From: Acidisarcina sp.
GTDB taxonomy: Bacteria; Acidobacteriota; Terriglobia; Terriglobales; Acidobacteriaceae
Direction: 5' to 3'
Assembly (NCBI GenBank): GCA_965199205.1
Contig: OZ240688.1
Coordinates: 68,276 to 132,275, forward strand
DNA: 64,000 nt
This document shows, in pieces, positions 55,689 to 64,000 of the stretch (position 1 is the first letter of the stretch; each line of letters opens with the position of its first letter). The notes under the pieces were generated by a model. That model was given only the letters and a program-made list of their open reading frames with translations, did not search any database and was not told the origin of the DNA. The translations under genes were made by a program, and so were the position numbers.

Positions 55689-56945
55689 ATGCAGAGCCTC
55701 GGCGACACCTTTTCGCAGGTTTTTCGCGCCATCTGGGCAACCAAGTTGCGCTCGTTCCTGACGATGTTCGGGATCGCGTGGGGCGTGGGATCGATGCTCC
55801 TGCTGATCAGCGTCGGGGAGGGCTTTCGATCGGGACAGCATCGGGAACTGGCGAGCGTCGGAAATGACGTGATCATGATGTGGGGCGGAACGATACCAGC
55901 AGTCCCCAGCCAGCACACCGGCATGCGGCCGTATCACCTGACGATCGGCGATGAGACAGCGATGCGCACTTCCGGGCGATTTCGCGAGGTAATGGGGTTG
56001 ATTCGCCGCAACGACATCAAGCAGCAGAGCGAGTATCAAAGTGCCGGCGGGGCGATCCTCGGCACCGAGCCGAATTATCCCGTAGTCCGCTTTCTGCCGC
56101 TTGCTGCCGGGCGCTTTTTGAGCGACGGCGATCTGCGCGACCGGCGCAGGGTGGTGGTGCTTGGCCAGAAGAGTGCGGTGCTGCTCTTTCCGGGCAGGCC
56201 GGCGGTCGGGCAAACGATCCTGCTGAATGGCGCCAGCTTCGAAGTAATTGGGGTCGCGCTGAAGTCAGGCCACGGGGACGACGACGGGCAGAACCAGCAG
56301 CTCTACATTCCGTTGACCACCATGCTCGAGATGTTTCCCATCAAAGGCGAAAACCTGCCGCTGGACGCCCTGAGCTCGATCCAGTACCAGCCGCGGGTGC
56401 GAGGCGAGAGTGAGCCGGCGAAGGCCGCGGCACATGCCATCATAGCGGCGAGGCACTCGTTCAGCTCGGATGATGCTGACTCGTTTGACGAGTGGGACAC
56501 GATCAAGAGCGATCGCATGGTGGGCAAGATCTTCACGGCGATGGACGTCTTTTTGGGAGGCGTGGGCATCGTGACGCTGGCTCTAGGCGCTGTTGGTATC
56601 GTGAATATCATGCTGGTGTCGGTCTCGGAGCGGACACGGGAGATTGGCTTGCGAAAGGCGATCGGTGCGACCAGGCGCAGCATTCTCATGCAGTTTTTTC
56701 TTGAGGGTCTACTGCTGACCGGTGTGAGCGGGTTGATCGGCATTGGTGGAGCAGCGCTGCTGATGTATCTCATCCAGGCGGCCATCGGCGGTAAAGGCGT
56801 GCAAGGTTTTGACCCTCCCCGGCTGGTGCCCTGGTCGGCGGCGCTGGCGCTGCTTTCGCTGAGCTTGAGCGGCATCTTCGCCGGCTTGTACCCGGCCAGC
56901 AAGGCGGCCGCGCTCGAGCCGGTAGAAGCGCTGCGCCGGGAATAG
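55689..56945 (+). CDS. MacB/FtsX-like ABC transporter permease
   Basis: KLRSFLTMFGIAWG, GAVGIVNIMLVSVSERTREIGLRKAIGA, YPASKAAALEPVEALR. Confidence 0.9.
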   Translation: MQSLGDTFSQVFRAIWATKLRSFLTMFGIAWGVGSMLLLISVGEGFRSGQHRELASVGNDVIMMWGGTIPAVPSQHTGMRPYHLTIGDETAMRTSGRFREVMGLIRRNDIKQQSEYQSAGGAILGTEPNYPVVRFLPLAAGRFLSDGDLRDRRRVVVLGQKSAVLLFPGRPAVGQTILLNGASFEVIGVALKSGHGDDDGQNQQLYIPLTTMLEMFPIKGENLPLDALSSIQYQPRVRGESEPAKAAAHAIIAARHSFSSDDADSFDEWDTIKSDRMVGKIFTAMDVFLGGVGIVTLALGAVGIVNIMLVSVSERTREIGLRKAIGATRRSILMQFFLEGLLLTGVSGLIGIGGAALLMYLIQAAIGGKGVQGFDPPRLVPWSAALALLSLSLSGIFAGLYPASKAAALEPVEALRRE

Positions 56946-57012: not shown

Positions 57013-58251
57013 ATGCTGGGCGAGCTGCTGAAACAAGCATATGAAGCGATGATTTATAACCGGCGCCGCACCATGATCACCATGGTGGGTATGGCCTGGG
57101 GTATCGCGACGGTGGTGATCCTGCTGGCCTACGGTGCTGGGTTTCAACGGGCGATCGAGGCGATCTTCGCGCAATGGGGTACCCACTTGATCGGTATCTT
57201 CCCAGGCAGGACGAGTGAGCAGGTTGGCGGCTCCAAGGCCGGGGTGGTCGTCAGGCTTACGCAGGATGATGTGGATCGCCTCTACAACTCCGTCCCGGGG
57301 CTGTTGCGTGTGACGCCGGAGCTATCGAAGGACGTACCGGTGCAGAACGAACTGCACACGTACACCTGGACGGTCAATGGGGACCGCCCTGAGGCGCAAT
57401 CGATCCTGAAACTCGACGTGGAGAGCGGCCGCTTCTATACGACGCAGGATGACGAGCAGCGAGCCCACGTTGCGGTGATCGGTTCAGAGGCCAAGACAAA
57501 GCTGTTCGGCGGCCAGTATGCGATCGGACGGCGCATCCGGCTTAACGGGATCGGCTTCACCGTGATCGGTGTTCTACAACCGAAGATGCAGGAAGGCGAC
57601 GATGATGCCAATCGCCAGGTGCGCATTCCTTTCAGTACCATGAGCGATATCAAAGACCCGAAATACCTCGACGGAATCTGGATGAATTACAAAGGCGACA
57701 ACAAGACCGTCGAGCGCGCGGTGCGGACGAACCTGGCGGAGGAGCATAACTTTCAGGTGAGGGACCACAACGCCCTCTATGTGGCCAACCTAGAAGAGCA
57801 GCTCAGCCAGTTTCGCATCGTAAGTCTTGCGCTACAGGTTCTACTTCTTTTTATTGGGGCGTTGACCCTGGGAATCGCCGGCATCGGGCTGATGAACATC
57901 ATGCTGGTGGCGGTGCAGCAGAGAACGAAAGAGATCGGCATCGAAAAGGCGCTGGGTGCGCGCAAGCGGCATATCCTGGTCCAGTTCATGGCCGAAGCGC
58001 TGGTGATTACCGGCATCGGCGGTGCCGCCGGCATCGCTCTCGCGTATGCGGTATCGCTGATCGTCGGCAGGATCACGTTCTATAGCGCGGTTGCGAGCAA
58101 TGCAAGCGACGCGGATATTCAACTACTCATTTCGCCGGTCAGCATTGCGGTCGCAACCGGCATTCTCATTTTAGTGGGACTGGTGAGCGGGATGGTGCCG
58201 GCGCTCAAGGCGGCCAATATGAATCCGATCGAGGCGCTCCGCTACGAGTGA
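57013..58251 (+). CDS. MacB/FtsX-like ABC transporter permease
   Basis: RTMITMVGMAWG, GIGLMNIMLVAVQQRTKEIGIEKALGA, VPALKAANMNPIEALRYE. Confidence 0.9.
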   Translation: MLGELLKQAYEAMIYNRRRTMITMVGMAWGIATVVILLAYGAGFQRAIEAIFAQWGTHLIGIFPGRTSEQVGGSKAGVVVRLTQDDVDRLYNSVPGLLRVTPELSKDVPVQNELHTYTWTVNGDRPEAQSILKLDVESGRFYTTQDDEQRAHVAVIGSEAKTKLFGGQYAIGRRIRLNGIGFTVIGVLQPKMQEGDDDANRQVRIPFSTMSDIKDPKYLDGIWMNYKGDNKTVERAVRTNLAEEHNFQVRDHNALYVANLEEQLSQFRIVSLALQVLLLFIGALTLGIAGIGLMNIMLVAVQQRTKEIGIEKALGARKRHILVQFMAEALVITGIGGAAGIALAYAVSLIVGRITFYSAVASNASDADIQLLISPVSIAVATGILILVGLVSGMVPALKAANMNPIEALRYE

Positions 58252-58263
58252 CAAGCAGAAGGT

Positions 58264-59283
58264 TCAGACGGCGCGGCCTAAGGCTTTTTCGCGGTATAGC
58301 TCGGAATCGGCCCGGCTGAGGACTTGAAGAAGCGTCTCGCCCGGGGACCACTCCGCCATGCCGATCGAGGCGCTCACCTTGACACTCAGCATGCTTCCGG
58401 GAAGCTCCAGTTCGTAGTTTCCGAAGACCCACGGTCTCATGCGCTGCACTTTGATCTTGGTGTTGGTGAAGTTGCCGTCGAGGACGAGGGCGAATTCATC
58501 GCCGCCCCATCGGCCCACGACATCTTCGGCGCGGGAGGCGAGGCGCAACTCGATGGCGATCTGGCGCAAGAGCTCATCGCCGGCCAGATGGCCGTGGAGA
58601 TCGTTGATCTTCTTGAAGTCATTCAGGTCGATGATGACGACGCAGAAAGGAACCTGATTTTCGACCCTGCGGCCGATGCGCATCTCGACCTCGCGACGAT
58701 TGTAGAGCCCGGTGAGCGGATCGAGCGAAGCCAGTTCCTGGGCTTGCTCCAGTTCGGCGCGGTATCCGGCAAGGCTCTCCTGGAGTTGAGTGATCGAATC
58801 GTTGCCTTCCCGGGTCATGCGTTCGATACAGCCTTTCAGTTCTCCCGCGCTGTGCAACAAGGATGCGCGAATTCTTGTGAGATCGTCCAGCTGCGCGACG
58901 GTCTCGAGGTTCTCCGAGATGGCGGCGAACTGCCGGGTGTAGCGCTGATCGCGCTTGCCAAAGAACTCCGCGGTACTGGCGAGCTCAGCGAGGATCTCTT
59001 TAACTTCCGCTGTCTTCCGTTTGTAGTAAGCCTCGCTATTTTTCCCCCAGAGCTGCAGGGATTTCAAGACCTTATTCTGAATCGGCTTGAGCGTTTCCGC
59101 GGAATAGTTCCCGGTTAGAGATTTGGCGGCAGAAGAGAGGTCATATTGCAGCGGTTGACCAGTGGACGGGCAACAGCGAACTGCGCCTTCGGCGATTGCG
59201 TTTAGTGTGTCGCGATACGCGACACTGCTCAGGCGCAGGAGTTTATCCGGGTTCTGCTCGAGAAGGGCTTTGATCGAAATCAT
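58264..59283 (-). CDS. Diguanylate cyclase (GGDEF) with N-terminal helical region
   Basis: DPLTGLYNRR, IDLNDFKKINDLHGHLAGD, RAED I-site, RWGGDEF, SRADSELY; start uncertain (59283 or 59349). Confidence 0.92.
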   Translation of the reverse strand: MISIKALLEQNPDKLLRLSSVAYRDTLNAIAEGAVRCCPSTGQPLQYDLSSAAKSLTGNYSAETLKPIQNKVLKSLQLWGKNSEAYYKRKTAEVKEILAELASTAEFFGKRDQRYTRQFAAISENLETVAQLDDLTRIRASLLHSAGELKGCIERMTREGNDSITQLQESLAGYRAELEQAQELASLDPLTGLYNRREVEMRIGRRVENQVPFCVVIIDLNDFKKINDLHGHLAGDELLRQIAIELRLASRAEDVVGRWGGDEFALVLDGNFTNTKIKVQRMRPWVFGNYELELPGSMLSVKVSASIGMAEWSPGETLLQVLSRADSELYREKALGRAV

Positions 59284-59469
59284 CTGTTCATCTTGTTCAG
59301 ACCTAGCTGGGTTGCCGCCTGCAGTGAGATGGCGATACCGTTGGCCCACAACATGGATATCGGGCAGACAGCAGACTTCATTAACTATTACCGCGCAGCC
59401 CGGGGCAGAACGGCGAAAAAGAGCGGCCCACCACTGTGGACCGCTCTAGGAAGTCGCTGCCGATTCATT

Positions 59470-61464
59470 TCAGTCGCTCGACTCGTCTCGTTTGTAGGGA
59501 ACCTGTAGGTGAAGGCGTGCCTCGTTGAGGGCGCCTTGGGTGTTGTCGTTGGTCTGGACGGCCTGACGATATTCATTGACGGCGCGGTCGCGCTGGCCGG
59601 TCACGTCGAAGATCTTGCCGAGCTGGATGTGGCTCCAGACCTCGGTCCATTTCGGATCGTCGTCGCCGCGCAGCGCATCGCGGTAGGCGTTGGCGGAGGC
59701 TTGGTAGTTGCGCTGGTTGAAGAGGGCTTCGCCGATACGATAGCTGGCCAGCGAACTATTAGGATTGGCTGCTATGGCTTTCTGGTACTCGGCAATGGCG
59801 CCCGCGGTATCGCCTTGAGCGATAAGTTGCTGACCGCGCAGGATGGAGATGCGGACCTGCATGTCGGGGGAGTTCTTGAGCAGCCAGCCGTTGGAGTCGA
59901 GGGAGATGTGGCGGGGACGGCCGAAGGTGTCGACGACGTACTGGGAATCGGTACCGACAACATCGATGCGCTTGATCTCGGTCTTTCCGTCAGTTTCGAT
60001 CTTCAGTTCGACGGGCATGCGGAAGAGATCGAGGTCCTGGCCGATTTCGCCGATGGTGCGGAAGCCCTTGTTGTTGCCGAGCCGGTAGACGGTGTACTTA
60101 TCAGTAAACTCCGGCGCGCCGGTGCCGTCGATCCATTGGGCAAAGAAGGCTGTGAGCTGTTGTTGAGACTGGGACTCGGCGAGTCGCATGAAGTCGGAGT
60201 TGCGGATCGGCTTGTCGGCGTATTGGGTAAGCGTCGCTTTGAGAATGTTCCGGAAGCTGTCGTCGCCGACCTCCCAACGAAGCATGTGAAAGACCATCGC
60301 CCCTTTTTCGAGAGTGAGGGACTGGAACTCGGGGCTGAAGGGGTCGTCGCGGCCGACTGAGCCTAGCGGGATGGTGTCGTAGGCGAGGGCACCGGCAGAG
60401 ATATCGACGACGGCCTTCTGCAAGGCGCTTTGGCCGGCCTCGTCCTCGAGATACATGAGCTCGGCGTAGCGGGACATACCGTTGGTGATCCAGGCGTCAT
60501 TGAGGGTCGCGGGCGAGACTTGGCTGCCCCACCATTGCCGGGCCACGGTGTTGGCGAGCAGGCGGTAGTTGGCCTTGGAGGTCATGCGACCGCCGGGAAT
60601 TGCGGCGATCTCCGGGGCCCAGAAGGCGGGCAGGGTATCGTCCGGGATTTCGACAACGTTGAAGTGAACCGATTCCGCGGGACCGAAGAGGCCGGTGAAA
60701 AAGTTGAATTCCTTGGCTGCGGTGTCGGCAAACTCGGGAGCGGTGGCCTTATGCGCGTCGGTGGTCCAGATATGAATATACGAGGCGCTGGGAGCGGGAA
60801 TAGGGTTAAACTTGCCCGCGATGATAGTGCCGGGAAAACCGGGCTTGTCCCACTTGAAATCGAAGGTGCCGCCGGACTGGGTGATGGGGGTGACGGCGCC
60901 GCTGCCGACGACGCGGTAGTCGGCGGGAACGGTCACATTGATGTCAGCCGTGAACCGGTCAGTCAAGTAGCCAGTCATGGGAAACCATCGCGCCGGATAC
61001 AACAAATAACTGATGGGACTGCCGATCGAGGCGAGCTTCAGACCCTCGACCGGGCTCTCTTCGGAGCCGGAGAGAACGCCGTCATAAGCGAAGGTAAAGG
61101 TCGTGCTCTGACCTTTGGCGAGGGCTGCAGGCAGAGTCAGGCGGATGGTTGCGTCGGCGCCGCGTTCGCCGGAGAGCACGTGGCCTGACCCGTCCGTGAC
61201 TTTCTCGACTTTGAGGGCGCTATGCAGCTGAAAAAGTACGGTGTCGGAGGTCTCGAGCGGCGTAAACGTGACCCGCGCAGTGGCCTTGATGCTGTGAGCA
61301 TCCGGGTCGATCTGGGCGTCGATCTTGTAGGCGGTAATATTGATCGCGGGCTTGTCAGCGGCGTGAGAGAGAACGGGCGTAAGCAGCGAAAAGCCAAGGA
61401 TTGCAAGGCACAGGAAGGCCGGACAAACTCTCAAGACACGCATATGCACAAAGGTGATCTTCAT
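59470..61464 (-). CDS. Exported M1 aminopeptidase-fold protein with C-terminal TPRs; catalytic motifs degenerate
   Basis: Signal peptide; M1 N-domain (YKIDAQIDP, WFPM, FTADINVTVP); HExxH position reads NTVAR-QWWG; KGAMVFHMLR; C-terminal TPRs (GAIAEYQKAI, SANAYRDAL, AVNEYRQAV). Confidence 0.85.
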   Translation of the reverse strand: MKITFVHMRVLRVCPAFLCLAILGFSLLTPVLSHAADKPAINITAYKIDAQIDPDAHSIKATARVTFTPLETSDTVLFQLHSALKVEKVTDGSGHVLSGERGADATIRLTLPAALAKGQSTTFTFAYDGVLSGSEESPVEGLKLASIGSPISYLLYPARWFPMTGYLTDRFTADINVTVPADYRVVGSGAVTPITQSGGTFDFKWDKPGFPGTIIAGKFNPIPAPSASYIHIWTTDAHKATAPEFADTAAKEFNFFTGLFGPAESVHFNVVEIPDDTLPAFWAPEIAAIPGGRMTSKANYRLLANTVARQWWGSQVSPATLNDAWITNGMSRYAELMYLEDEAGQSALQKAVVDISAGALAYDTIPLGSVGRDDPFSPEFQSLTLEKGAMVFHMLRWEVGDDSFRNILKATLTQYADKPIRNSDFMRLAESQSQQQLTAFFAQWIDGTGAPEFTDKYTVYRLGNNKGFRTIGEIGQDLDLFRMPVELKIETDGKTEIKRIDVVGTDSQYVVDTFGRPRHISLDSNGWLLKNSPDMQVRISILRGQQLIAQGDTAGAIAEYQKAIAANPNSSLASYRIGEALFNQRNYQASANAYRDALRGDDDPKWTEVWSHIQLGKIFDVTGQRDRAVNEYRQAVQTNDNTQGALNEARLHLQVPYKRDESSD

Positions 61465-62675
61465 TCCGCCAAACTCGAAATCTGCTGTTCCGGTTGATGA
61501 GCGCGCTTCGCGACCAGCGCGAGCGTGATGCCGGCGACTCGCTCGACAGCGCTCTCCTGCTTCGGTTTCCGAATGGCTGGGCTGCTGAAGCGAAGCTGGC
61601 TTGCAACCTGGCGGAGCTCTTCTTTCATTGTTTCTCGATCGTTCTCATTGTGCATCAGCCGACGCAGATGTAAGACGACGTTCGCAGCGGTAAAGTCACC
61701 CTGGATGAGTTCGGGAACCACTTCCCGGTTAGCAATCAAATTGACCATAGCGACAAAGGGTACCTTGACGACGCGCCTGGCAACAGCATAGCTGAGCTCT
61801 GAGATGCGGTAGACAACCAGGAAAGGGGTGCCGATCAGGGCAGCTTCTACCGTGGCGGTGCCGCTGGCGACGACGCTGGCGCGGGCGTGGTGGAGAGCCG
61901 CGCGGGCGTCGTCGACCAGGGTAATTCTCGGTGCGGGCGCGTTCAATAGGATGGCCGAGAGCGTGGCCTTGTGCGCGGGGGTGAGTGTAGGCGCGAGCGG
62001 CAGGAGGAATTCAGCGTCTTCGCCAAGATCTCTCGCCGCCCGGAGCATCGTGGGGAGGTTCAGCTCAATTTCTTTGCCGCGGCTGCCGGGCAGCAGGGCG
62101 ATCCAGGGTTTGGCGGGATCGAGATGGTGCTCGGCGGCGAAGCCGGCGCGGGAGATGTTGGGCGCGGGCAGGCTGGCGAGTGGATGACCGACGAAGGTCG
62201 CGGATACGCCGTGGCCCTCGTAGAACGCCTCCTCGAAGGGAAAGATGACCAGCATCCTGTCGACATAGCGCTGCACGTGCTTGATACGGTGTTTCTTCCA
62301 GGCCCAGAGCTGAGGGCTGACAAAGAAGATGACGGGGATTTTGAGGCGGTAGAGTTCGCGGGCGAGCGAGAGGTTGACGTCGGGAAAGTCGATGAGAATG
62401 GCGGCGTCGGCGAGGGGTTTCGGTTGGAGGCTGCGCTTGAGCTTGCGGTATTCGGCGTAGATGCGGGGCATGTGGCGGACGACTTCGGTGATGCCCATGA
62501 CCGCGACGTCTTCGGCTCGCACGATGCGCTCGAGGCCGGCGGCTTCCATGCGATGGCCGCCGAGGCCGAAGAAGGTGGCGCCGGGAGCCAGCTCGCGGAG
62601 GGCGTGGATCAGTGACGTGCCGTAGTGCTCCCCGCTGGCTTCACCGGCGGAGAGGAAGATGCGTGGACCGGTCAT
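61461..62675 (-). CDS. lpxB: Lipid-A-disaccharide synthase
   Basis: IFLSAGEASGEHYG, AVMGITEV, IDFPDVN, SPQLWAW, IFPFE, LLPGSR, SGTATVE. Confidence 0.95.
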   Translation of the reverse strand: MTGPRIFLSAGEASGEHYGTSLIHALRELAPGATFFGLGGHRMEAAGLERIVRAEDVAVMGITEVVRHMPRIYAEYRKLKRSLQPKPLADAAILIDFPDVNLSLARELYRLKIPVIFFVSPQLWAWKKHRIKHVQRYVDRMLVIFPFEEAFYEGHGVSATFVGHPLASLPAPNISRAGFAAEHHLDPAKPWIALLPGSRGKEIELNLPTMLRAARDLGEDAEFLLPLAPTLTPAHKATLSAILLNAPAPRITLVDDARAALHHARASVVASGTATVEAALIGTPFLVVYRISELSYAVARRVVKVPFVAMVNLIANREVVPELIQGDFTAANVVLHLRRLMHNENDRETMKEELRQVASQLRFSSPAIRKPKQESAVERVAGITLALVAKRAHQPEQQISSLAE

Positions 62676-62682
62676 CGCGTTA

Positions 62683-64000
62683 TCAGTCCATGCCGACCAG
62701 GGTGGAAGCGGATTCCACGCCGAAATGGGGAAGTTCCTGGTCTTTGTACTGGAGTTGATAGAGCTTGTAGTAGAGGCCGCGGCGGGCAAGCAACTCCTGG
62801 TGGGTACCCATCTCGCGAAGCTGCCCTTTGTGCATGACCAGAATGACGTCTGCCCTCTGGACCGTGGAGAGGCGATGCGCGATGACGACCGAGGTGCGGC
62901 CAGTGACCATGCGCTCGAGCGCCGAGCGGACGAGGAGTTCGGTGTCGGTGTCGACACTTGAAGTCGCTTCGTCGAGGATGAGGATTTTGGGGTCGTGGGC
63001 GAGGGCGCGAGCGAAGTTGATCAATTGCTTGCGGCCGGTCGAGAGGGTAGCTCCGCGTTCGCGGACCGGTTCGGTGAAATCGCCCGGGAGTTCATCGATG
63101 TAGTCCAACAGGTTGACGTCGTTCGCGGCCTTCTTCATGCGCTCATCGGTGATCCAGTCGGAGCCGAGGCGGATGTTGTCGGCGATGGTGCCGGTGAAGA
63201 GGAAAGGATCCTGCAGAACGACGCCGAAGCGCTGGCGAAGTTGCTTCAGGCTATGCAGCCTTACATCGACGCCGTCGACCAGAATGCTGCCGCTCTGGAT
63301 GTCGTAGAAGCGCATCATGAGGCTGATGATGGTGGTCTTGCCGGCGCCCGTGTGCCCGACGATCGCCGCGGTCTGGCCGGTTTCGATGATGAAGGAGACG
63401 TCGCGGAGGATCCATTCGACGGTGCTGCCGAGGGCGGCGAGTTCGGCGGAGTTTTCGCTGGCGGCACTCTGTTTCTGTTGCTCGTCAAGGTGCTGATAGG
63501 TAAACCACACGTTTCGGAATTCAATGCGCCCTGCCTGTTCGATCTCTTCGGGCGAGACAGGGTTCAGGATCGCGGTCGGGGTGTCGAGGAGCTGAAAGAC
63601 GCGCTCGCTGGCGGCCATGGCCGCCTGGAGGATGTTGTATTTGTCACTGAGGTCCTGGATGGGTCGAAAAAAGCGCATGGAGTACTGCATGAAAGCAACC
63701 AGGACGCCGACGGTCACGGTGCCGCGCAACACCCCGTCTCCACCGCGCCAAAGCACTAGGGCGATAGCGACGGTGGAGAGAATCTCTACCGCCGGATAGT
63801 AGAGGGCGTAAGCGAGGATCGCGTCCTTGAAGGCGACCATGTGCTGGCGATTTACTGCCTCGAAATCGTCGTAGGCGCGCTGTTCGCGGTTGAAGAGCTG
63901 GACAACGGTCATGCCGCTGATGTGTTCCTGGGTGAAGGCGTTGATGCGGGCGATGGCGGAACGAATGCGGCGATAGGAGCTGCGCACGTATTTGCGAAAG
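62683..64000 (-). CDS. ABC exporter permease/ATPase (MdlB/MsbA-like), 5' end outside the window
   Basis: RPIQDLSDKYNILQAAMAASERVF, Walker A GHTGAGKTT, signature LSTGRKQ, ILDEATSSVD, IAHRLST. Confidence 0.9.
   Translation of the reverse strand, partial: FRKYVRSSYRRIRSAIARINAFTQEHISGMTVVQLFNREQRAYDDFEAVNRQHMVAFKDAILAYALYYPAVEILSTVAIALVLWRGGDGVLRGTVTVGVLVAFMQYSMRFFRPIQDLSDKYNILQAAMAASERVFQLLDTPTAILNPVSPEEIEQAGRIEFRNVWFTYQHLDEQQKQSAASENSAELAALGSTVEWILRDVSFIIETGQTAAIVGHTGAGKTTIISLMMRFYDIQSGSILVDGVDVRLHSLKQLRQRFGVVLQDPFLFTGTIADNIRLGSDWITDERMKKAANDVNLLDYIDELPGDFTEPVRERGATLSTGRKQLINFARALAHDPKILILDEATSSVDTDTELLVRSALERMVTGRTSVVIAHRLSTVQRADVILVMHKGQLREMGTHQELLARRGLYYKLYQLQYKDQELPHFGVESASTLVGMD

Follow-up and report, generated by a model that had tools for sequence, protein, structure and literature searches.

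An exported M1-aminopeptidase-like protein without catalytic residues, conserved beside lpxB in Acidobacteriota

Why would a bacterium keep, directly behind a gene of lipid A synthesis, an exported protein built like an M1 aminopeptidase in which every catalytic position has been replaced? The question is raised by a stretch of 64 000 nucleotides (nt) from Acidisarcina sp. (contig OZ240688.1, positions 68 276–132 275; hereafter the window). At its end, the minus strand carries a three-gene operon in the order exporter, lpxB and a gene, here called M1-TPR, coding for an M1 domain followed by tetratricopeptide repeats (TPRs). Acidobacteriota are among the most abundant soil phyla and, to our knowledge, their envelope biogenesis is almost unstudied, the available models coming from Proteobacteria. 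We find that the M1-TPR gene represents an old, selected family and not a gene in decay; a role in the envelope is most likely, and it is the gene neighbourhood that points to it. The M1-TPR gene and the parts of its product are as follows, with the evidence in brackets.

59470–61464, minus strand: M1-TPR pseudopeptidase open reading frame (P0001), intact, 664 amino acids (aa) (sequence, Pfam, alignment, model)
61360–61464, minus strand: predicted signal peptide, residues 1–35 (sequence features; low model confidence over residues 1–35)
60760–61344, minus strand: domain I, beta-sandwich, residues 41–235 (AlphaFold model; Foldseek alignment to M1 domain I)
60130–60741, minus strand: domain II, thermolysin-like, ex-catalytic, residues 242–445 (Pfam Peptidase_M1, model)
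60610–60627, minus strand: AFWAPE in place of the GxMEN exopeptidase motif, Glu replaced by W282 (alignment to ALETAG of the Deinococcus enzyme M1dr)
60538–60552, minus strand: NTVAR in place of HExxH, residues 305–309, with N305, T306 and R309 (residue alignment, HELAH of M1dr)
60478–60492, minus strand: WITNG in place of WLxEG, third zinc ligand Glu replaced by N328 (residue alignment, WLSEG of M1dr)
60301–60312, minus strand: LEKG in place of YxKG, catalytic Tyr replaced by L385 (residue alignment)
59899–60108, minus strand: domain III, beta-sandwich, residues 453–522, with a conserved QDLDLFRMPVE segment (model)
59503–59868, minus strand: three TPRs and a capping helix, residues 533–654 (Pfam TPR_2/TPR_16; seven helices in the model)

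Homology to the M1 family is found both by sequence and by fold. The Pfam model Peptidase_M1 (PF01433) matches residues 300–444 with an E value of 6.1e-13 (49.3 bits, cut-off 27.7), and the closest solved relative by sequence, M1dr (PDB 6iff/6a8z), aligns over residues 106–453 with an E value of 9e-18 (phmmer search of the PDB). The AlphaFold2 model, built from an alignment of 40 sequences, is confident (predicted local distance difference test score 89.2, predicted template modelling score 0.86). When this model was compared with known structures by Foldseek, as the first-pass annotation of the window had proposed, the four-domain M1 fold was recovered: the whole chain falls on IRAP, ERAP1, ERAP2 and PSA (E values of about 1e-28, with 3e-29 for IRAP/ERAP1), with a template modelling score of about 0.6 (query-normalised) over some 660 columns. 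The PepN and LTA4H equivalogs were tried and rejected (TIGR02412, 30.4 bits against a cut-off of 591; TIGR02414, 15.9 against 718; TIGR02411, 17.5 against 762).

The first-pass annotation had read every catalytic position as substituted, and the residue alignment bears this out. The HExxH-X18-E pattern of an active metallopeptidase is missing, NTVAR and N328 standing in its place; the Glu of GxMEN, which binds the alpha-amine of the substrate in aminopeptidases, corresponds to W282; and the transition-state Tyr of Y-x-K-G corresponds to L385. The structural neighbours of these positions (Q310-W311-W312, D323, W325, G329 and K387-G388-A389) are kept in at least 90 per cent of 40 aligned members, so the loss is confined to the catalytic positions. 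It is also specific to the M1-TPR gene, since four M1 paralogues in this genome have kept HExxH...E intact; a signal peptide is present in at least one of the four. Beyond the window, HELAH is intact in an M1 domain situated near the C-terminus of an unusually long frame of 1352 codons (G000:C1:2563980–2564522, minus strand).

The replacements are shared by close relatives. Among 92 copies from Acidobacteriaceae, the first His of HExxH is Asn in 91 and the Glu is Thr in all; the last position is His in 82 and, as in the window, Arg in 10. The third-ligand position is Asn in 92/92, the GxMEN Glu is Trp in 83/92, and the Tyr position is Leu in 85/92 and Tyr in only two. The 26 copies from other families have mostly Arg or Lys at the first His position (23/26), Glu at the base position in 10/26, mostly Tyr at the second His position, and Asp, Gln or occasionally Glu as third ligand. 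HExxH occurs in none of the 118 genomic family copies. Recent decay, against which close orthologues were to be checked, is therefore not what they display; HExxH survives in two deep lineages only (see below).

The remainder of the architecture is equally regular. The N-terminus has a basic n-region, a hydrophobic core and the sequence SHA|AD, and equivalent N-termini are present in 31 of the 31 homologues examined; it is probably a type I signal peptide without lipobox, cleaved after SHA, so that the protein is probably periplasmic. At the other end, the TPRs score above their cut-offs (TPR_2, 46.7 bits, E value 1.9e-12; TPR_16, 38.9 bits). An intact frame of 664 aa with a signal peptide and about three C-terminal TPRs, as first described, thus stands on Pfam, the model and reading of the sequence. 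In the model, the TPRs take the place of M1 domain IV and are not an added extra.

The family is widespread in the family Acidobacteriaceae and beyond. The nearest named protein, from Acidisarcina polymorpha, is 86 per cent identical, and 60 of the 61 genera of Acidobacteriaceae have one intact copy of the gene. At least 16 further GTDB families of Acidobacteriota have full-length relatives of 27–35% identity, with a signal peptide and the same TPR end. Altogether, the M1-TPR family was found in roughly 40 of 151 sampled Acidobacteriota genomes. Among 1.8 billion cluster representatives searched exhaustively with HMMER, 244 clusters reached E ≤ 1e-30, and the named members encountered are all from Acidobacteriota. 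Related loci retrieved with a narrow alignment of the family were from Acidobacteriaceae only.

Selection on the gene is strong. Ratios of nonsynonymous to synonymous substitution rates (dN/dS), computed by the Nei–Gojobori method for 40 pairs of close genomes, are 0.025–0.12 for M1-TPR against 0.07–0.29 for lpxB, and M1-TPR has the lower value in 38 of the 40 pairs. The constraint is unevenly distributed: mean identity in distant members decreases from the TPRs (39%) through domain III (34%) and domain II (27%) to domain I (26%), and the TPR part, with 22 conserved columns per 100, is the most conserved of all. As far as is known, active M1 enzymes have the opposite order. Loss of catalytic residues, purifying selection and conservation across lineages together agree with the working definition of a pseudoenzyme under selection. 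The selected pseudopeptidase suggested at first is thus well founded: frames are intact in nearly all genera, dN/dS is below that of lpxB, and the genomic relatives across the phylum are all without HExxH. Public annotations that we saw for such proteins ('aminopeptidase N', 'M1 family aminopeptidase' and 'peptidase M1, membrane alanine aminopeptidase') are almost certainly wrong; the misannotation is systematic, and none of the proteins examined is able to bind zinc.

The architecture of the family is combined with a retained HExxH-X18-E in two cluster representatives, P0128 and P0136, neither of which has the Glu of GxMEN or the canonical Tyr. One member of the cluster of P0136 (P0272), found on a Logan contig of run SRR22388328, directly follows lpxB, in the neighbourhood of a divergent PMT_2 (ArnT-like) gene and an LpxL-type acyltransferase gene upstream and a convergent AMMECR1 gene downstream (locus L133). 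On a maximum-likelihood tree with active M1 outgroups (a quick search, supported by the Shimodaira–Hasegawa-like approximate likelihood ratio test, SH-aLRT, only), the M1-TPR sequences form a single clade (SH-aLRT 100), within which the two keepers of HExxH branch at separate places. The protein thus persisted through repeated loss of its zinc site: if regain is impossible, at least two losses are needed on well-supported branches and six on the best tree. The residues that replaced it differ by clade (NTxAH; R-E-x-x-Y; [RK]-R-x-x-[YQL]), consistent with repeated loss. Of the coordinated loss proposed in the first-pass annotation, the part that stands is that all sites are gone; the zinc site went several times, not once. 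Since rare keepers and many independent losses occur in the same orthologous group, the selected function would appear never to have depended on catalysis. The simplest reading of these sequences is a function independent of peptide hydrolysis, even while the ancestor could bind zinc.

The features around the M1-TPR gene are the following.

62683–64000, minus strand: ABC (ATP-binding cassette) exporter, 3' part within the window (Pfam ABC_membrane and ABC_tran)
61461–62675, minus strand: lpxB, lipid-A-disaccharide synthase, 404 aa (Pfam LpxB, TIGR00215)
61461–61464, minus strand: ATGA overlap of the lpxB stop and M1-TPR start codons (sequence; a signal of translational coupling)
59403–59438, minus strand: hairpin and T-run resembling an intrinsic terminator (scan match at 59435–59422; a longer stem is readable in the sequence)
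58264–59349, minus strand: GGDEF diguanylate cyclase gene, 361 aa (Pfam GGDEF, E value 2.6e-34)

The identity of lpxB is firm: PF02684 matches with 312 bits (E value 6.6e-93) and the LpxB equivalog TIGR00215 with 279.3 bits, above its cut-off of 190.25. Its start codon lies 7 nt from the exporter stop codon (62683–62685), and its TGA (61463–61461) overlaps the M1-TPR ATG (61464–61462), both as originally noted. The M1-TPR start is not certain, Met8 (61443) being an alternative to Met1; Met1 is favoured by an MKI N-terminus conserved among close orthologues.

This arrangement is not peculiar to the window. In Acidobacteriaceae, M1-TPR is preceded on its own strand by lpxB in all 12 loci of one sample and all 79 of a larger one (91/91 with readable upstream DNA), the distance being within 400 nt in 74 of the 79. 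Outside Acidobacteriaceae, lpxB precedes M1-TPR in 15 of 26 loci, and these 15 cover 12 of the 16 families (13 of 17 when the window's family is included). Adjacency to lpxB, which the first reading had singled out for checking, is thus conserved well past Acidobacteriaceae. The gap between the two genes has a median of 10 nt over 105 loci, in 41 of which, distant families included, the lpxB stop and an in-frame start of M1-TPR overlap, in most cases by 4 nt. Through this translational coupling, synthesis of the M1-TPR protein would be tied to that of LpxB. The loci without lpxB amount to essentially one clade and one isolated case on the tree, so the adjacency is best read as ancestral in the M1-TPR family.

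No other gene accompanies M1-TPR in this way. Clustering of the open reading frames of 80 loci revealed, besides lpxB, no gene present in more than about one-third of them; the exporter is present in 29. The MsbA-like exporter, which is a neighbour in about one-third of the Acidobacteriaceae loci and whose place is taken in other classes by mnmA, was therefore rejected as a member of the conserved unit. In those classes (loci L014, L019, L022, L025 and L026), the genes form a block of an extracytoplasmic function (ECF) sigma factor, a 260-aa protein, mnmA, lpxB and M1-TPR. The 260-aa protein has no Pfam match and is possibly an anti-sigma factor.

Both the coupling to lpxB and the lipid A genes around the zinc-retaining relative make a role in the outer membrane or in lipopolysaccharide (LPS) the most likely one. 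We accordingly propose, with confidence and doubt about evenly balanced, that the M1-TPR product is an exported, non-catalytic M1-fold protein acting as a scaffold, adaptor or holdase in the outer-membrane or LPS biogenesis of Acidobacteriota. The link to LPS made in the first-pass annotation is retained here in part: the lpxB neighbour stands, the exporter does not, and the role itself is one that the neighbourhood suggests. Such a protein would have kept M1 domains I–III, with a short TPR superhelix replacing domain IV, and would have lost the zinc ligands, the general-base Glu, the amine anchor of GxMEN and the transition-state Tyr. It could then bind without cleaving in the old cleft between domain II and the TPRs; the corresponding space, between domains II and IV, is where ERAP1 and IRAP hold long peptides. 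Lined by highly conserved surfaces of domain III and the TPRs, the cleft may accommodate a ligand in extended form, of which a stretch of polypeptide from an envelope protein is the likeliest, or serve as a docking site for a partner protein, and these most constrained surfaces would form a conserved contact. Translational coupling would set the level of the M1-TPR protein by that of LpxB. A more specific version, which we put forward tentatively, makes the protein a lineage-specific periplasmic component of LPS or outer-membrane assembly, a one-time peptidase needed for normal integrity of the outer membrane, whose closed cleft and TPRs hold an envelope precursor or a subunit of the machinery. 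It is likewise no more than possible that, in this version, production is tied stoichiometrically to lipid A synthesis through the coupling to lpxB.

Several observations weigh against an envelope role, and some of them favour a non-catalytic periplasmic or secreted binder unrelated to LPS, serving for example in peptide capture, adhesion or sensing, with the position after lpxB an old operon arrangement kept for expression. LpxB acts at the cytoplasmic face of the membrane, whereas the M1-TPR protein is exported; the other neighbours (the ECF sigma factor and mnmA genes of other classes) are unrelated housekeeping genes; and a whole clade (families f29, f17, f37 and f48), together with one genus-level case, manages with the M1-TPR gene away from lpxB. 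The family is missing from roughly 70 per cent of the sampled Acidobacteriota genomes, and lpxB was present in each of the 13 such genomes that were checked. Since most lpxB-bearing Acidobacteriota do without the family, lipid A synthesis cannot universally depend on the protein. The sole genus of the 61 without the gene (G019, 2.4 Mb, locus L135) has kept the exporter and lpxB, with nothing recognisable within 1.5 kb downstream of lpxB; it is a natural knockout open to comparison. Direct binding of lipid A through a basic cleft was considered and is unsupported, the charges being negative (net charge −17 for the mature protein and −10 for domain II), and the public runs that hold the window sequence are assemblies resembling metagenomic DNA, with no RNA run among them. 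For the LPS-unrelated binder, on the other hand, it is awkward that adjacency to lpxB has outlasted divergence to 27–35% identity while every other neighbour was reshuffled, that overlapping stop and start codons recur in distant lineages, and that the zinc-retaining relative of locus L133 is likewise surrounded by lipid A genes. We regard this explanation, the strongest of the alternatives, as somewhat doubtful, though deserving to be kept in view.

The protein might instead be a regulatory pseudoenzyme that controls an active peptidase, either an M1 paralogue or another periplasmic protease, or presents substrates to it. The four M1 homologues with HExxH...E in the genome, at least one with a signal peptide, would offer partners, and in the f29 clade the gene adjoins two genes that look, by eye, like M16 (insulinase-type) peptidases. 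Many pseudopeptidases act in such a way. How pseudopeptidases behave in general is the subject of a review (PMC11266112). No active peptidase gene is found among the conserved neighbours of M1-TPR, the family is single-copy without a close active paralogue, and the link to lpxB would be left unexplained; this makes a regulatory role unlikely. Non-canonical chemistry in the old cleft, by another metal site or by a metal-independent hydrolase or transferase, would fit the second His kept in 82 of the 92 Acidobacteriaceae copies, the Arg or Lys (23/26) and Glu (10/26) of other clades at the first His and base positions, and the full HExxH-X18-E of two lineages. It is very improbable: the replacements vary by clade, hence there is no family-wide alternative catalytic constellation, the window copy has Arg at the second His position, and the ex-catalytic domain is less conserved than the TPRs. 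A relic of an aminopeptidase in the course of recent pseudogenisation would account for the disappearance of all catalytic residues, and is refuted by intact frames in 60/61 genera and phylum-wide, dN/dS values of 0.03–0.12 and a confidently predicted fold. Our preferred reading therefore remains a scaffold, adaptor or holdase that would serve the biogenesis of the outer membrane or of LPS.

The rest of the locus can be described briefly. Read from the genome, the exporter is a type-I ABC exporter of 643 aa whose start, at 64614, lies beyond the window; it is the first gene of the operon here, the next gene upstream being divergent. Its best NCBIfam match is MsbA_lipidA (418.6 bits, cut-off 602), with several other exporter families scoring nearly equally. 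The terminator-like hairpin sits about 30 nt past the M1-TPR stop codon and closes the operon ahead of the GGDEF gene, which begins 120 nt downstream of M1-TPR. The GGDEF gene is therefore a separate unit; it adjoins the M1-TPR family in no other locus and was rejected as a member. Two adjacent genes of about 415 aa on the plus strand (55689–56945 and 57013–58251), resembling MacB/FtsX-type ABC permeases by eye, converge on the GGDEF gene. An Rfam search of positions 58000–64000 gave no RNA family. In Logan contigs of three runs, a joint skips 285 nt of the region coding for the TPRs and domain III (59723–60009); its shorter side measures only 22 nt, and an assembly artefact or the sequence of another organism is the probable origin.

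The interest of the locus lies in an exported pseudoenzyme that is constrained more strongly than LpxB and is still found beside lpxB as other neighbours changed. Constraint and retained adjacency mark the M1-TPR protein out as a concrete candidate envelope factor, specific to the phylum and open to testing. For the study of how pseudoenzymes evolve, the family is also a clean natural experiment.

No description of the M1-TPR family, of a bacterial exported M1 pseudopeptidase or of such an lpxB-linked partner was found in a full-text literature search. A 2024 review of pseudopeptidases (PMC11266112) gave no match to family M1, TAF2 or aminopeptidase N, and the word 'bacterial' appears there in the reference list only.

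By sequence, M1dr is the nearest. Domains I and II align (residues 106–453) and several motifs are common to both proteins: xQWxG after the HExxH helix, D..W..G..Y, KGA, and the W..G..P that ends domain II. M1dr has HELAH...E and ALETAG, whereas the window protein is without all catalytic residues and adds domain III, the TPRs and a signal peptide. As its depositors' names indicate, M1dr is an active zinc enzyme; it measures 474 aa and has no helical domain at its C-terminus. By fold, the closest are the oxytocinase-type enzymes IRAP, ERAP1 and ERAP2 (also PSA, APN and PepN), which share the order of domains I-II-III-IV and have a helical C-terminal domain facing the thermolysin-like one. Identity to them is only 12–15%; domain IV of the window protein is made of three TPRs totalling some 120 aa, whereas in those enzymes it comprises ARM/HEAT-like repeats of about 350 aa, and the window protein, without zinc site, GAMEN and Tyr, is bacterial, exported and encoded after lpxB.

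Two known TPR proteins were tried as identities and rejected: LapB/YciM (16.8 bits against a cut-off of 474; no Cys-rich C-terminus) and CpoB/YbgF, the TPR protein of Tol-Pal (TIGR02795, 29 bits against 90.1). LapB (YciM) of Enterobacteria is an inner-membrane TPR protein facing the cytoplasm, has a rubredoxin-like zinc finger and couples LPS synthesis to the state of the envelope. The likeness to it is that of a TPR protein genetically tied to lipid A biosynthesis genes. The positions of kdsA in 151 genomes were also compared with those of the M1 matches, and seven kdsA loci with long open frames were read; no M1 gene was near kdsA in this sample. Independently of the M1-TPR family, locus L126 (G104:C1:2192379–2199086) has pyrG-kdsA-kdsD followed by a gene for a 408-aa TPR protein whose terminal CxxC...CxxC zinc finger is of the kind usual in LapB/YciM; a LapB-like regulator beside the genes for 3-deoxy-D-manno-octulosonic acid (Kdo) would thus exist in at least some Acidobacteriota.

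In its use of the fold, the M1-TPR protein may be likened to TAF2, a subunit of eukaryotic nuclear TFIID in which an inactive M1 aminopeptidase-like fold, with no TPR domain, serves as an interaction scaffold. The comparison concerns the fold; TAF2 is no close relative, and what the two have in common is an M1 fold reused without catalysis. Pseudopeptidases as a kind are already known; what we rate as new here is the M1-TPR family and its context.

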